A stretch of 60,400 nt of DNA, counting the filler, from Candidatus Woesearchaeota archaeon (GTDB lineage: Archaea > Nanobdellota > Nanobdellia > Woesearchaeales > CAZJJJ01), in the NCBI GenBank assembly GCA_046538795.1. It is 3 parts of 3 records of this genome, joined end to end, with 100 filler letters (N's around TTAATTAATTAA, not from the genome) between each part and the next. Parts side by side here need not be neighbours in the genome. Positions count along the whole stretch, not along the records: positions 1 to 20,984 come from JBKHIF010000020.1; 2 more parts are not named here. One strand, 5' to 3'. Each line of letters starts with the position of its first letter. Position 1 is the first letter of the stretch. The notes below the pieces were generated by a model. The model did no database searches and was not told the DNA's origin. It was given only the letters and a program-made list of their open reading frames with translations. A program made the position numbers and the translations under genes. This document shows positions 9,327 to 45,786 of this stretch, piece after piece.

Positions 9327-10358
9327 ATGGGAATAAAGATAAAGGATATTGTTGAACCCAAAAAGATATCCATTTCAGACTTATCTGGCAAATCTCTGGC
9401 TGTTGATTCTTTTAATATATTGTATCAATTTCTAACTACAATAAGACAGCCTGACGGAACTCCTCTTATGGATAAGAACAATATGATAACCTCTCATCTT
9501 GTAGGGCTTTTTTCAAGGACAACGAAACTTATGATGAACAATATAAAACTTGCTTTTGTTTTTGATGGCAAGACACCTGAGCTAAAATCAAAGGAACAGA
9601 AAAGACGAAAACAGGCCAAAGAAGAAGCACAAGAAAAATACAAAATAGCGATGGAAAAACAAGATATTGAGGCAATGAAAAAATATGCTTCAAGAACAAC
9701 TGTTTTGACAAAAGAGATAATAGACGAAGCAAAAATTCTTATAAGAGCTTTGGGAATGCCCATAATCCAGGCGCCTTCAGAGGGAGAAGCTCAGGCAGCT
9801 TATATGGCAAAGAAAAATGATATTTTCGGAACAGTTTCTCAGGATGGAGATTCACTTATCTTTGGCGCTCCGAGATTTGTAAGAAACCTTTCCTTGACCC
9901 AAAGAAAAAAATCACAAAATAAATTGTCCTATGAAAAGACATCGCCTGAGATAATATCCTTAAATGATACTCTTAATTCTATGCAGATAAACATTGATCA
10001 GCTGATAATATATGCTATATTAGTAGGTACTGATTACAATAGCGGTGGTGTAAAAGGCATAGGCCCCAAAACCGCAATAAAGCTTGTAAAAGAATATAGG
10101 GATCGATATGATGAACTATTCAAAGAAGTTTGTTGGGATGAATATTTTGACTATCCCTGGTCAAATGTGTATGACGTCATAAAGAAAATGCCTGCAACAG
10201 ATGACTATGAGTTAAAGTGGAACTCTCCAGACACCAAAGCTATAAAAGAGCTTCTTGTAGAGAAACACGACTTTTCAGAAGAGCGTGTTGATTCTGTTTT
10301 AGAAGAGCTGAAAACCAAAATGGATACCAGGCAAAAAGGTCTTGGTGATTTCTTTTAG
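9327..10358 (+). CDS. fen: Flap endonuclease 1
   Basis: YQFLTTIRQPDGTPL, APSEGEAQAA, GTDYN..GVKGIGPK, C-terminal PIP box QKGLGDFF. Confidence 0.96.
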   Translation: MGIKIKDIVEPKKISISDLSGKSLAVDSFNILYQFLTTIRQPDGTPLMDKNNMITSHLVGLFSRTTKLMMNNIKLAFVFDGKTPELKSKEQKRRKQAKEEAQEKYKIAMEKQDIEAMKKYASRTTVLTKEIIDEAKILIRALGMPIIQAPSEGEAQAAYMAKKNDIFGTVSQDGDSLIFGAPRFVRNLSLTQRKKSQNKLSYEKTSPEIISLNDTLNSMQINIDQLIIYAILVGTDYNSGGVKGIGPKTAIKLVKEYRDRYDELFKEVCWDEYFDYPWSNVYDVIKKMPATDDYELKWNSPDTKAIKELLVEKHDFSEERVDSVLEELKTKMDTRQKGLGDFF

Positions 10359-10394: not shown

Positions 10395-12122
10395 ATGATA
10401 GCGATAAAAGTGCCTTTAAAAGATGCTGAAAAAGTAAAAAAACATCTTATAAAAACTAAAAATCTTGACTTTGATCATTCTTTTAAAAAAAAAGATTCTT
10501 ACATATATTTTCCTGTGAAAAAAAAAGATGGTTCTCTTGTATATGATTATGAAAGCATAAATTTTAAAAAAAATATTAAAGAAAAAAGTTTCAGGGATAT
10601 ACTTAAGACAAAGCTTTCTTCAGATGAATATGATAAGATAAAAACTGCTTTTGATACAGTTGGTGATATTGCGATCCTTGAGATAGATGAAGATATAAGA
10701 AAACATGAAAAATTCATCGCAGAAACACTTCTTAAAACAAATAAGAATGTGAATACTGTCCTGAGGAAACATGGATCTCATGGAGGCACTTTCAGGACAC
10801 AAAAGATGAAATACCTTGCAGGTGAAAAAAAGAAGGAGACGATTCACAAGGAAAATAACGTGAAGCTTAAGCTTGATGTAGAAAAAGTCTATTTTTCAGT
10901 AAGGCTTTCTACTGAGAGAAAAAGAATATCTGGTCTTGTTAAAGAAAGTGAAGATATTCTTGTGATGTTTTCAGGATGCGCTCCCTATCCGGTTGTGCTT
11001 TCAAAGAATACAAAAGCAAGACAAATATACGGTATAGAGCTTAATCCTGACGGCCATAGTTATGGAGAACAGAATATAAAACTTAATCATCTGGATAATG
11101 TATTTCTGATAAATGATGATGTCAATAAAGCAGTTCCTCTTTTTTATCAAAAAATTATAGGTCTAAAATGTGCAAATATTAAAGAGCAGTTAGAGCCTAT
11201 TTTAAAACAAGAGTTAAGCATACTGGAATTGCACACTTTTGAGTCTGATTTTAAAAAAGACTATACTTTTCTTAAGAAGAAGATTAAAGAATTTAAGAAA
11301 AAAGGTATCAAGGTCTGGGTGCATCAGCCGTTGGATGTTGAGATAGATGTTGCAAGATGTGGTTCTTCAAATCCCATATTTAAGAAAATGCTTATGCTTG
11401 TTGATGATCTGGATATCAATCTAACCATACATCCTTCAAGAGATGCGCCTCCAGAAATAAAAGATGAAACAATAATAAAAAACATGAAAACATTCAGGAA
11501 ATATTATGATAACATCTATTTTGAAAACGGACTTCATTCCAATTTCAATAAAAAAGAGCAAATACTAAACATAATAGAAAAAGCAAAGATAAAGAATTTT
11601 TGTATTGATGTGTCTCATTTTTTAGGCAATTACAGCAATAGTGAATGCATAAGTATCATTAAAGAGATACAAAAAAGATGCAATACTTACTTTCATCTGA
11701 ACGATTATAATGGCACTGATTCACAGCCGTTATATTCAGGCTCAAATATTGAGATTGAGAAAATATTGCCTTTGGTTACAAAAGGCATAGTCGAAATAAG
11801 AAGCAAAAATCATGAAAAGCCAAAAGAGATGATATCTTCTTTTAAGTATCTGAAAGATTTTCAGAAAAAGTTTGACAGGATACTTATGCCGCTTCCCAAA
11901 TCAGCAGAAGATTTTCTTGACAGTGCGCTTGTTGCATCAAGAAAAGGAACTGTAATACATTTCTATGATTTTTTGAATGAAGATAATTTTCATGAAGCTC
12001 ATGAAAAAATCGATAATGCCTGCAAAAAACATAAGATGAAATATAAGATAATTAACACTGTGAAATGTGGGCAGCATTCTCCGAGAACATATAGAATCTG
12101 CGTTGATTTCAAGATACTCTGA
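10395..12122 (+). CDS. trm5: Trm5-family tRNA methyltransferase with inserted TIM-barrel-like domain
   Basis: FDTVGDIAIL, HKEN, VYFSVRLSTER, MFSGCAPY, IELNPDG, then ~240 aa insert, then FDRILMPLP and IHFY. Confidence 0.85.
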   Translation: MIAIKVPLKDAEKVKKHLIKTKNLDFDHSFKKKDSYIYFPVKKKDGSLVYDYESINFKKNIKEKSFRDILKTKLSSDEYDKIKTAFDTVGDIAILEIDEDIRKHEKFIAETLLKTNKNVNTVLRKHGSHGGTFRTQKMKYLAGEKKKETIHKENNVKLKLDVEKVYFSVRLSTERKRISGLVKESEDILVMFSGCAPYPVVLSKNTKARQIYGIELNPDGHSYGEQNIKLNHLDNVFLINDDVNKAVPLFYQKIIGLKCANIKEQLEPILKQELSILELHTFESDFKKDYTFLKKKIKEFKKKGIKVWVHQPLDVEIDVARCGSSNPIFKKMLMLVDDLDINLTIHPSRDAPPEIKDETIIKNMKTFRKYYDNIYFENGLHSNFNKKEQILNIIEKAKIKNFCIDVSHFLGNYSNSECISIIKEIQKRCNTYFHLNDYNGTDSQPLYSGSNIEIEKILPLVTKGIVEIRSKNHEKPKEMISSFKYLKDFQKKFDRILMPLPKSAEDFLDSALVASRKGTVIHFYDFLNEDNFHEAHEKIDNACKKHKMKYKIINTVKCGQHSPRTYRICVDFKIL

Positions 12123-20984: not shown

Positions 20985-21084
20985 NNNNNNNNNNNNNNNN
21001 NNNNNNNNNNNNNNNNNNNNNNNNNNNNTTAATTAATTAANNNNNNNNNNNNNNNNNNNNNNNNNNNNNNNNNNNNNNNNNNNN
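20985..21084. other. Artificial contig linker
   Basis: 100 bp: N-run, TTAATTAATTAA (stops in all six frames), N-run. Confidence 0.97.
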
Positions 21085-30341: not shown

Positions 30342-31007
30342 ATGAGTCGTGAGGAAAATTTGGGTTATAGTCGTGCTTTGAATGCTGCTATGGAATATAT
30401 AAACACTCAGTATGGAGGAGAGGTTCCGGCAGGTTCAATCAGAAGGCGTCAGATGAGGAAGATAAAGAAGCTTTCAAGTTCATTTAGTGATAGATTTACT
30501 GATTCCCGATATGAAAACAGAAGAACTAATTATCATAGGCATACGCTTAACGAATTCAATAGTGGGGTGCATGGAATTCTTGATGAGCCTAAAACACAGC
30601 TTGAAAATGAGCTTGATCGTTTTAAGAGAGATGAGATTGAATATCCCTGCACAAGAAATGATGGATGGCTCAACATAGTAAGAGAATCCAATGAAGGCAT
30701 TAAAGAGTTTGTGAGAGGTTTATATGAAGAAGCAAGTGAATATGCTTTAAGATACATGCCTTCTGGATCTGAAAGAAGAACGAGATTTCAGCATACTGTA
30801 TCAGAGAGAATAGAAAATCTTGAGGCTCTTCTTGATCATGACCTGGATACGCTTGAAGACAACATAACAGGTATTGCACAATCAAAAAACGAGCAGCTGC
30901 ACAGGAGAGCTGCTGAGCTTACTGAGAGATATAATAAAGCGATACACAGACCTGTTACCACGAGACGATCCTTTTGGTCAAGGGTAAAGAATATTTTTAG
31001 GAGATGA
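30342..31007 (+). CDS. Hypothetical helical protein (tandem paralog 1)
   Basis: GAGGTG RBS; shares WLNIVRESNEGIKEFVRGLYEEA with the next gene. Confidence 0.8.
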   Translation: MSREENLGYSRALNAAMEYINTQYGGEVPAGSIRRRQMRKIKKLSSSFSDRFTDSRYENRRTNYHRHTLNEFNSGVHGILDEPKTQLENELDRFKRDEIEYPCTRNDGWLNIVRESNEGIKEFVRGLYEEASEYALRYMPSGSERRTRFQHTVSERIENLEALLDHDLDTLEDNITGIAQSKNEQLHRRAAELTERYNKAIHRPVTTRRSFWSRVKNIFRR

Positions 31008-31036
31008 TTTTTATTATTTTATAGGATTTGGTTAAG

Positions 31037-31615
31037 ATGGTTTTAAATGATAAAGTTATAGGTTATGAAAGGGCAATCACAGTCGCAAAAGATTTTTTGG
31101 GAGACAGATATGATTCCCTTGAAAGAAGAGAAAAAAGAAAGATCGAAAAGCTTTCAAGGTCATATGGCAAAAGATTTTCAGACCCCAGGTATGAAAATAC
31201 AAGAACTCAGTATCATAAAGATACAGTAAATCACTTTCAGAAAGATCTTATTAAGATTTTTAATGGTCCTGAGATAAGTGATATTGAGTTTTCTCTTGAA
31301 AGAAATGAAAGCTGGCTCAACATAGTAAGAGAATCCAATGAAGGTATTAAAGAGTTTGTTAGAGGATTATATGAAGAAGCAAACGAACAGGCTTTAAGAT
31401 ACATGCCTTATGGGAGTGAAAGAAGAAAGAGATTTCAGGATATTATGTCAGAGAGAATTAGGAATGTTGATGCCCTTCTTGATAGTGATCTGGAAACACT
31501 TGAAGAGAGAATAAGGAAGGTTAATGAATCAAAAGATCGTCGAAAGAGTGCCGAAGAACTTAATGAAAGATATTTTAGAGCATTACAGAGCAAGAGAAAA
31601 TCGAAAAAAAGATGA
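31037..31615 (+). CDS. Hypothetical helical protein (tandem paralog 2)
   Basis: Colinear similarity to the preceding gene. Confidence 0.8.
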   Translation: MVLNDKVIGYERAITVAKDFLGDRYDSLERREKRKIEKLSRSYGKRFSDPRYENTRTQYHKDTVNHFQKDLIKIFNGPEISDIEFSLERNESWLNIVRESNEGIKEFVRGLYEEANEQALRYMPYGSERRKRFQDIMSERIRNVDALLDSDLETLEERIRKVNESKDRRKSAEELNERYFRALQSKRKSKKR

Positions 31616-40899: not shown

Positions 40900-40999
40900 N
40901 NNNNNNNNNNNNNNNNNNNNNNNNNNNNNNNNNNNNNNNNNNNTTAATTAATTAANNNNNNNNNNNNNNNNNNNNNNNNNNNNNNNNNNNNNNNNNNNN
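40900..40999. other. Artificial contig linker
   Basis: 100 bp N/TTAATTAATTAA/N. Confidence 0.97.
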
Positions 41000-45328: not shown

Positions 45329-45549
45329 ACTTAATCACCCTTTGAATACATCTATCTTAAGATATATGAATTTAAATACCTTCCATCAACATATGTCCAG
45401 TGTCCAGTGCCCAACTCTAAGAAAAAACAATAAAGTACGCCCATTTGCCAAAAAGATATAATCTATGCAATCTCTTTCATCAAGAAATATATGATTCATG
45501 GCTGTATCTAAGATAATAGTGTGAGACAAAAATAGAATTTAAATCTAAG

Positions 45550-45758
45550 AAATAAAGAAAATCACTGCTCAAGCCTATTAGAAATTTAAAAAATTTCTAT
45601 CCCTAAAACTGACAGTTTTAGATATCCCCACACTTCAGTGTGGGGTATTAGGGCTTTCGCAGCTGAGGTGATTTTCTAATTTCAAAATTCGCCTTCAAAG
45701 GCGAGGTATTGCTCCAAAGGAGTACCCTTTCAGAATAAACCCAAAATTTAGAAATAAA
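45550..45758. mobile_element. Dispersed hairpin-rich element, copy B (expanded)
   Basis: Ends shared with 27058-27158; interior has four hairpins including CCCCACACTTCAGTGTGGGG. Confidence 0.7.
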
Positions 45759-45786
45759 AAAAAATCATATATCATATGTGAAAGTC

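Follow-up and report, generated by a model that had tools for sequence, protein, structure and literature searches.

Trm5 is a core translation enzyme and is near-universal in the archaeal order studied here, being present in 147 of the 151 genomes of an even sample (each genome at least 90% complete). The locus described below raises the question of why such an enzyme should carry a whole second domain within its catalytic fold, how that domain came to be there and what it may do. The gene lies in a window of 60,400 nucleotides from a Candidatus Woesearchaeota archaeon, made up of three contigs (C77, C80 and C81) joined by runs of N at 20985-21084 and 40900-40999; trm5 is well inside C77 and is the only copy found in its genome. 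An initial annotation had proposed that a TIM barrel interrupts an otherwise intact Trm5, yielding a bifunctional enzyme that possibly acts further on position 37 of tRNA. Features of the locus are collected in Table 1.

Table 1. Features at the fused trm5 locus, with positions counted along the window
Feature	Position	Strand	Remarks
FEN1 gene	9327..10358	+	40 bp upstream of trm5; ancestral synteny
Whole trm5 gene	10395..12122	+	575 aa; predicted Trm5a/Taw22-type tRNA (G37-N1) methyltransferase with inserted barrel
Trm5 N half	10395..11144	+	D1 residues 3-44, D2 residues 67-145, first half of Rossmann domain (Pfam)
N-half residues R134, Y166, E174, R175, motif I FSG, E215, N217, D242			in all, or almost all, of 43 fused genes
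beta3-alphaC, last 15 codons 5' of insert	11100..11144	+	
Inserted (beta/alpha)8 barrel, AP endonuclease 2 superfamily	11145..11861	+	residues 251-489
K258 and E278 (at the ends of beta1 and beta2, respectively), family-specific	11166..11228	+	56/56 each (alignment A2)
Putative metal ligands H310, H346, E377, D405, H408, H434, E467	11322..11795	+	from alignments and counts
Trm5 C half	11862..12122	+	motif IV MPLP at 11886-11897, Pro replacing Asn

The insertion and its distribution

Between the flanks DDVNKAVPLF (residues 241-250) and QKKFDRILMPLP (residues 490-501), the inserted segment, which separates motif III from motif IV, translates to 239 aa, stop-free and in frame, as the initial annotation had described. 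The flanks are indeed near-adjacent in ordinary Trm5s, lying 0 to 12 residues apart (mode 3) in 48 uninterrupted proteins of the same order and 241 to 294 residues apart in 43 fused ones. The insertion site is identical in all 43 fused genes analysed, which span 27 families; left out of this set were two genomes not yet published, a masked gene and a row that failed to parse. Unpublished genomes otherwise contribute one alignment row (G360) or enter only within tallies (G333, G452, G550 and others), and no claim depends on them alone. Misassembly or chimerism, the refutation initially envisaged, is ruled out through independent homologs (not by reads). The GC content of the insert is 0.30, against 0.31 and 0.34 in the Trm5 halves, and its GC3 tracks that of the host (r=0.94 over 43 genes).

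Broader searches recovered the same architecture. Among the best 8000 candidates scored, at least 5 other 90% clusters possess it, with insert identities of 43-52%, and one such homolog carries the name Candidatus Woesearchaeota in its source. Of 1.84 billion representatives searched, 63 matched, some as fusions of 500-610 aa and others as free-standing proteins of 245-290 aa. In a sample of the phylum, 32 of 401 genomes matched, and the 30 loci examined were 27 Trm5 fusions, all within the order of the source genome, and 3 free-standing genes. A profile search of order genomes matched 48 of 401 at E<1e-29, with 43 long frames (520-650 aa), 3 free-standing genes and 2 contig-edge fragments. 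Prevalence is best read from the even sample, where the barrel is present in 16 of the 147 genomes with Trm5 (~11%). No description of this architecture was found in searches of open-access full texts, and some of these proteins are already labelled in databases with both Pfam domains. This two-domain variant of Trm5 is real and conserved and has, apparently, so far gone undescribed. In the window its gene neighbours are FEN1 and UPF0047; FEN1-trm5 adjacency is seen both with and without the insert, a synteny that is older than the insert.

That both Trm5 halves look intact is upheld by the structural model, a Foldseek match and the residues conserved in fused genes. The Pfam families PF18093, PF25133 and PF02475 score above cut-off (Trm5_N at residues 3-44, TYW2_N_2 at 67-145 and TRM5-TYW2_MTfase starting at residue 149), in keeping with the D1/D2/D3 fold of Trm5. 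NCBIfam scores are 180 bits against a cut-off of 550 for Taw22 and 242 against 600 for Trm5b, with the insert splitting the match in two. R134, Y166, R175, F192, G194, E215, N217 and the M-P-x-P motif are found in 43/43 fused genes, and E174 in 40/43 (Asp in 3); by motif position, R134, E174 and R175 would correspond to the Pab catalytic residues R134, E173 and R174. The Pro of motif IV occurs in 43/43 fused genes and in 46/48 alleles of the order that lack the insert (empty alleles), so the Pro motif is independent of the insertion. Pro or Thr in place of Asn at this motif marks the Trm5a/Taw22 type (PMC5113207), which is able to make both m1G37 and imG2 (PMC5113207, PMC7761594 and PMC5714064). 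Judged by their motifs, the host halves are a methyltransferase of this type. No clear fusion-specific residues were found in the Trm5 halves, the largest frequency difference being 0.43.

Several other departures from the usual Trm5 were seen. The genomes G046 (L081:1442-2920) and G040 (L082:1589-3055) have inserts of ~160 aa in the same Trm5 loop; these were considered as barrel relics, but no homology was detectable (hhalign 0.2%), and G046 additionally has an intact free-standing barrel gene. Inserts of ~95 aa in the same loop, plus ~33 aa before motif III, are found in G351 (L084:1336-2568) and G192 (L085:3295-4509), and the Trm5 of G174 (L086:2413-4101) is in frame with a hydrophobic, membrane-like stretch at its N terminus, ~220 aa long. 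Elsewhere in the window, 45547-45767 is an intergenic element of ~220 bp with related pieces on ~20 other contigs of the genome and in which no terminal inverted repeat was found, and 30342-31612 holds a tandem pair of paralogous ORFs, encoding 221 and 195 aa, that share 208 nt at 86% identity.

Fold, ligands and placement of the barrel

AlphaFold models the insert alone with eight strands at pLDDT 94.9 and the whole protein at pLDDT 94.6 and pTM 0.87. Model, structure searches and profile searches agree on the fold named initially, a TIM barrel of the xylose isomerase-like/AP endonuclease 2 group. The best structural matches are MJ1311 (Z 21.5), TM0416 (20.0), TTHB071 (19.4) and endonuclease IV (Endo IV; 18-19); epimerases and isomerases score level with Endo IV in these searches (Z 17-20). 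Against the PDB, the profile places MJ1311 first (E 1.7e-15) and Endo IV enzymes next, with epimerases only at E>0.01; MJ1311 is given as a predicted Endo IV in PMC2770678. PF01261 is matched at E<=0.01 by 40/45 members, the window's own insert not among them, and the best NCBIfam match of the insert is CbiR, a phosphodiesterase. ESM Atlas matches were only to unnamed or generic PF01261 clusters. PADLOC and PHROGs matched 0/45 members, and viral contigs and phage records gave no matches to queries that were of Bacillota type only.

All seven quoted motifs are present, as E278, H310, H346, E377, D405/H408, H434/D437 and E467. The inserts have diverged to about 20-45% mutual identity, and K258, E278, H310, E377, D405, H408, H434 and E467 are invariant in 56 fusions, with H346 kept in 54/56. 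We take the Endo IV equivalents of the seven ligands to be H69, H109, E145, D179, H182, H216 and E261, so that 7 of the 9 Endo IV metal ligands are kept in the register given by the alignments. The D229-equivalent column is Asp in 4/56, the H231-equivalent column is Ser, Gly, Cys, Thr or Ala in 54/56, and the position between them is His, Asp or Glu in 52/56. Keeping seven ligands while replacing D229 and H231 leaves two metal sites intact and the third remodelled. The net charge of the barrel ranges from -15 to +25, no conserved basic patch on it was seen across members' sequences, and the free-standing homologs are mostly acidic. Two of the His kept in the insert are important in the P. furiosus AP endonuclease (PMC2770678).

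The whole-protein model lies nearest the tRNA-bound conformers of Trm5 (rmsd 3.7-4.3, versus about 13 for apo Trm5a). A SAM-binding Asp-Val and the beta4 NPPY-type motif are placed at the active site in PMC5714064. In the model, strand 1 of the barrel follows directly on helix 243-254, and beta4 follows directly on helix 8 of the barrel. The alphaC-beta4 junction is the edge of the sheet opposite the active site, and the termini of a barrel of this kind lie opposite its active face. Modelled in this way, the insertion would sit at the Rossmann edge opposite the SAM/G37 pocket; with the termini also opposite the barrel face, the two active sites should face apart, the active face of the barrel probably pointing away from G37.

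Selection, loss and exchange of the insert

The insert is as constrained as the methyltransferase that carries it and is under purifying selection. In close same-genus pairs, its pS is like that of the flanks and its pN as low or lower; over 20 pairs, insert pS is not below flank pS. In the G466/G495 pair the insert is 93% identical, against 88-89% in the flanks. Intact ligands are retained vertically over whole lineages (f51, f25, f65 and f17). In G517 (L068:3309-4913), Trm5 has at the same site a shortened, degenerate barrel whose ligands are lost and which is a true barrel relic (98% probability).

Fused and empty states coexist within 15 families and 4 genera. The tree of the Trm5 halves mostly follows family and genus, with fused and empty alleles interleaved, and the EF-2 tree gives the same picture. 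On a 31-row tree 11 state changes are needed, not fewer than when states are shuffled (461/500 as low); these rows were picked to include matched pairs, so the interleaving is overstated. A clade of inserts with support of 100/99 (clade A: G000, G345, G528, G409 and G546) is rejected by the Trm5 halves (AU p=1e-4 with the junction window removed) and by EF-2 (p=7e-54, or 1.7e-5 after adding empty kin), and the insert data reject the host clade G546+G407 (p=8e-69) and another host clade at p=0.022; these groups were named only after the trees had been seen, and G546, with 4% contamination, carries EF-2 in two copies. The insert tree also separates G150 and G318, a same-genus pair, but not significantly (p=0.20). 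The correlation between insert and host distances is 0.78 within families and 0.31 between them. The presence of the insert is optional, and it has been exchanged laterally between lineages, a point absent from the initial annotation. As a further caveat on these tests, the EF-2 sequences of G007, G546 and f59 (L163-L167) form a deep clade of their own, at odds with their families, and look displaced.

The 15 codons 5' of the insert track it in clade A, though not in g171. Their identity is 86-93% among G000, G409 and G546, versus 36-75% in other N-half windows, and 36% between G345 and the empty allele of the same genus, G238. This flank identity is above that of the insert itself, so selection on the interface explains it too, besides co-conversion. 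The data are compatible with the fusion having arisen once (AU p=0.42 for monophyly of fused inserts). Stand-alone genes nest among the fused inserts in a quick tree; given the same p=0.42, we do not claim fission.

Possible functions and known relatives

The explanation we place first, and hold tentatively, is that the barrel is a host-useful metallo-phosphoesterase with a small nucleotide- or sugar-phosphate substrate, carried in a loop of Trm5 and swapped by recombination. The Trm5a-type halves would make m1G37, plus imG2 where Taw1 is present, and the barrel, in which two Endo IV-type sites are intact while the third is remodelled, would be an active metal-dependent phosphoester hydrolase working on a small soluble "house-cleaning" substrate independently of the G37 pocket. 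It may have been inserted, probably once, into a surface loop that tolerates extra sequence, in a conserved housekeeping gene; purifying selection would retain it where it is useful, and the conserved trm5 flanks would allow homologous recombination to swap it in, swap it out or replace it. In favour of this reading are the invariant ligands, among them the two His that matter in the P. furiosus enzyme, the MJ1311, Endo IV and CbiR matches, the low pN in close pairs, the variable charge without a conserved basic patch, the mostly acidic free-standing homologs and their lack of a conserved operon, the next-closest, NeuB-linked barrels that also lack H231, and the compatibility with one origin. 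Against it count the failure to find a partner gene, since AhcY, Taw1, Taw3 and the housekeeping Endo IV-like gene do not correlate with the fusion, and the methyltransferase neighbours of several free-standing homologs; an internal insertion held at one place in a single host gene throughout 27 families also looks more like coupled function than like a passenger.

The free-standing homologs bear on the substrate. In the order they occur in G328, G046 and G293; elsewhere, solitary copies were seen at ten loci of Bacillota and on a Pontibacillus plasmid. Across the loci examined, neither a common neighbourhood or operon nor a sugar operon was seen. SAM-dependent methyltransferases adjoin the G328, G293 and L174 homologs, which hints at a possible link, and an amidohydrolase adjoins some; most have neither. 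Bacillota use TrmD and are not known to have wyosine. With free-standing members in archaea and Bacillota alike and no partner gene, the substrate is probably something that these archaea and Bacillota both have, and not wyosine.

Candidate partners were also sought by co-distribution. Coupling to wyosine was rejected, as an apparent Taw1 excess in a family-matched set (31/36 vs 17/27, p=0.04) did not hold up once genomes were sampled evenly (14/16 vs 111/135, p=1), and Taw3 shows no excess (23/36 fused vs 28/44 unfused). The source genome has Taw3 (G000:C30:2961-3527) without detectable Taw1, which may reflect either a gap in the assembly or a wyosine pathway that is only partial. A partner in SAH recycling was likewise rejected, the AhcY excess seen with family matching (21/36 vs 8/27, p=0.04) being lost in the even sample (11/16 vs 77/135, p=0.43); for the long form of AhcY the difference is borderline (7/16 vs 27/135, p=0.052), and no barrel genes occur in 16 AhcY neighbourhoods. 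RtcB, Tpt1, 2H phosphoesterase and Xth gave no usable pattern in the 5 genomes searched. Two further proteins were noted: an 834-aa PfkB-like kinase-SAH hydrolase fusion in G332 (L187:3217-5718), with similar long frames in G498 and G438, and, outside the window, a protein of ~700 aa (G000:C22:6007-8115; L061/L063) in which several hundred residues break up the PF01261 match, a further case of an interrupted barrel in the source genome.

Rather unlikely, in our estimation, is a second activity directed at tRNA, with Trm5 tethering the barrel to mature tRNA, there to heal or cleave a lesion (such as the abasic site left when wyosine is lost, or an end with a 2',3'-cyclic or 3'-phosphate) or to modify the molecule further. 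Such an activity would be a new form of repair or editing coupled to G37 methylation, and it would fit the use of one internal site in one tRNA-binding enzyme (43 genes), the Endo IV-like ligand set, a predicted architecture that is rigid and resembles tRNA-bound Trm5, and one free-standing homolog (L070) that overlaps a gene for the RNA methyltransferase RsmB/F. It is opposed by the lack of co-distribution with Taw1 or Taw3 and the failure to find Taw1 in the source genome, by the lack of a conserved basic surface and the acidic homologs of Bacillota, by Trm5 halves without clear fusion-specific residues, and by a barrel face that, from topology, should point away from G37. The tracking results, the Bacillota homologs and this predicted orientation also tell against the initial suggestion of a further step at position 37; what survives of the proposed bifunctionality is that two catalytic domains are under selection in one chain.

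It is improbable that the barrel is instead a passenger sugar or sugar-phosphate isomerase, epimerase or lyase. The tie between epimerases and Endo IV in structure searches would allow this, as would the degenerate third metal site, the invariant beta1 Lys and a sister subfamily located with NeuB. Ketose 3-epimerases use a single metal, however, and both His of the first metal site of Endo IV type are invariant in the barrel; the profile ranking of PDB entries and the free-standing homologs without sugar operons also count against it.

We give little credence to a homing element that is never spliced, at the RNA or protein level, in which the barrel would nick or cut insert-less trm5 near the motif IV codons, be copied by gene conversion and be tolerated as a separately folded domain on the far side of its host. 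If the barrel did cut empty alleles, it would be a new class of selfish element apart from introns and inteins, with a fold new to homing; to our knowledge, no homing nuclease has an Endo IV-type barrel. The single site, 3-8 codons 5' of the motif that is conserved best, is what such an element would use, and the patchy ~11% prevalence, the unclustered states on host trees, the conflict of clade A with host halves and EF-2, the 5' flank that travels with the insert and the loss of ligands in G517 are all consistent with it. Recent sweeps are not apparent in the 20 pairs compared, however, ligands are kept intact through long vertical descent, the barrel lacks a conserved basic patch and has acidic free-standing homologs, and the groups behind the tree conflict were chosen post hoc. 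Scarcely credible is an AP endonuclease of DNA base excision repair that replaces the housekeeping Endo IV in a FEN1-trm5 operon: FEN1 is adjacent and the source genome has no strong free-standing PF01261 match, but a separate PF01261 gene is about equally common in fused (29/36) and unfused (35/44) genomes and does not track the insert, which rejects Endo IV replacement, FEN1 synteny is independent of the insert, and the D229 and H231 equivalents are missing.

The locus clearly illustrates how an entire domain can be gained, lost and exchanged at a single codon position within a housekeeping gene. A second conserved domain in the Trm5 Rossmann fold, at ~11%, also provides an assayable handle on an uncharacterised Endo IV-like subfamily, one with free-standing members in culturable Bacillota.

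Among known systems, the host resembles archaeal Trm5a/Taw22 (P. abyssi PAB2272 and N. equitans) and Trm5b (MJ0883) in its D1-D2-D3 organization and catalytic Arg/Glu/Arg, and shares the Pro-type motif IV with Trm5a/Taw22. Foldseek matches it to 5yac (E 4e-30) and 5wt1 (E 2e-26); these differ in that ~238 residues are added here between alphaC and beta4, the matched solved chains being of 320-349 residues. MJ1311 (PDB 3wqo) is a similarly compact barrel (rmsd 2.5 over 223 residues), but it is free-standing, keeps the D-x-H of the third metal site and is 16% identical to the insert. Endonuclease IV (Nfo/Apn1 and the archaeal PF0258 type) has the same fold and shares the seven ligands, whereas the insert is ~40 residues shorter, is without a conserved basic surface and falls far below the TIGR00587 cut-off; canonical Endo IV was rejected as an identity on the ligand count and this model, which 2/45 members match (best E 4e-4). 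CbiR, of the same superfamily, is the best NCBIfam match (E 1e-6; 16/45 members) and is described in bioRxiv 2020.09.02.280537 as a phosphodiesterase with His/Asp/Glu ligands that acts on a small molecule in cobamide remodelling. It too was rejected as an identity, at 28.5 bits against an NF041277 cut-off of 105 and with no cobamide genes adjacent.

The nearest other subfamily in these genomes is that of barrels linked to NeuB (E 1e-18 to 1e-23), which share the seven ligands, the loss of H231, the beta2 Glu (3/4) and the beta1 Lys (2/4) but are C-terminal fusions in sugar clusters and form a separate clade; no described function was found for them. Such barrels were seen fused or adjacent to NeuB-type nonulosonate synthases, an identity assigned by eye from sequence, at L064:4017-5915, L065:3130-4989, L066:1280-3199 and L078:3921-4874.

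Inteins and homing endonucleases offer a likeness of another kind, that of an in-frame insert at a single site of a conserved gene, patchy in distribution, laterally moved and occasionally decayed. As candidates, an intein was rejected because the whole insert is barrel, with no Hint domain, and splice residues (Cys/Ser start, His-Asn end and +1 nucleophile) are absent from the ends of 12 inserts and the junctions of 56; an archaeal BHB intron, because relaxed motifs number 0.56 per gene, against 0.42 in controls, and 24/43 genes have none; and a target-site duplication, with a longest shared junction word of 5.8 nt vs 5.8 in controls. The insert thus differs from these elements in having no Hint domain, splice residues, BHB or known homing fold, and it differs from them further in being under strong, long-term purifying selection.
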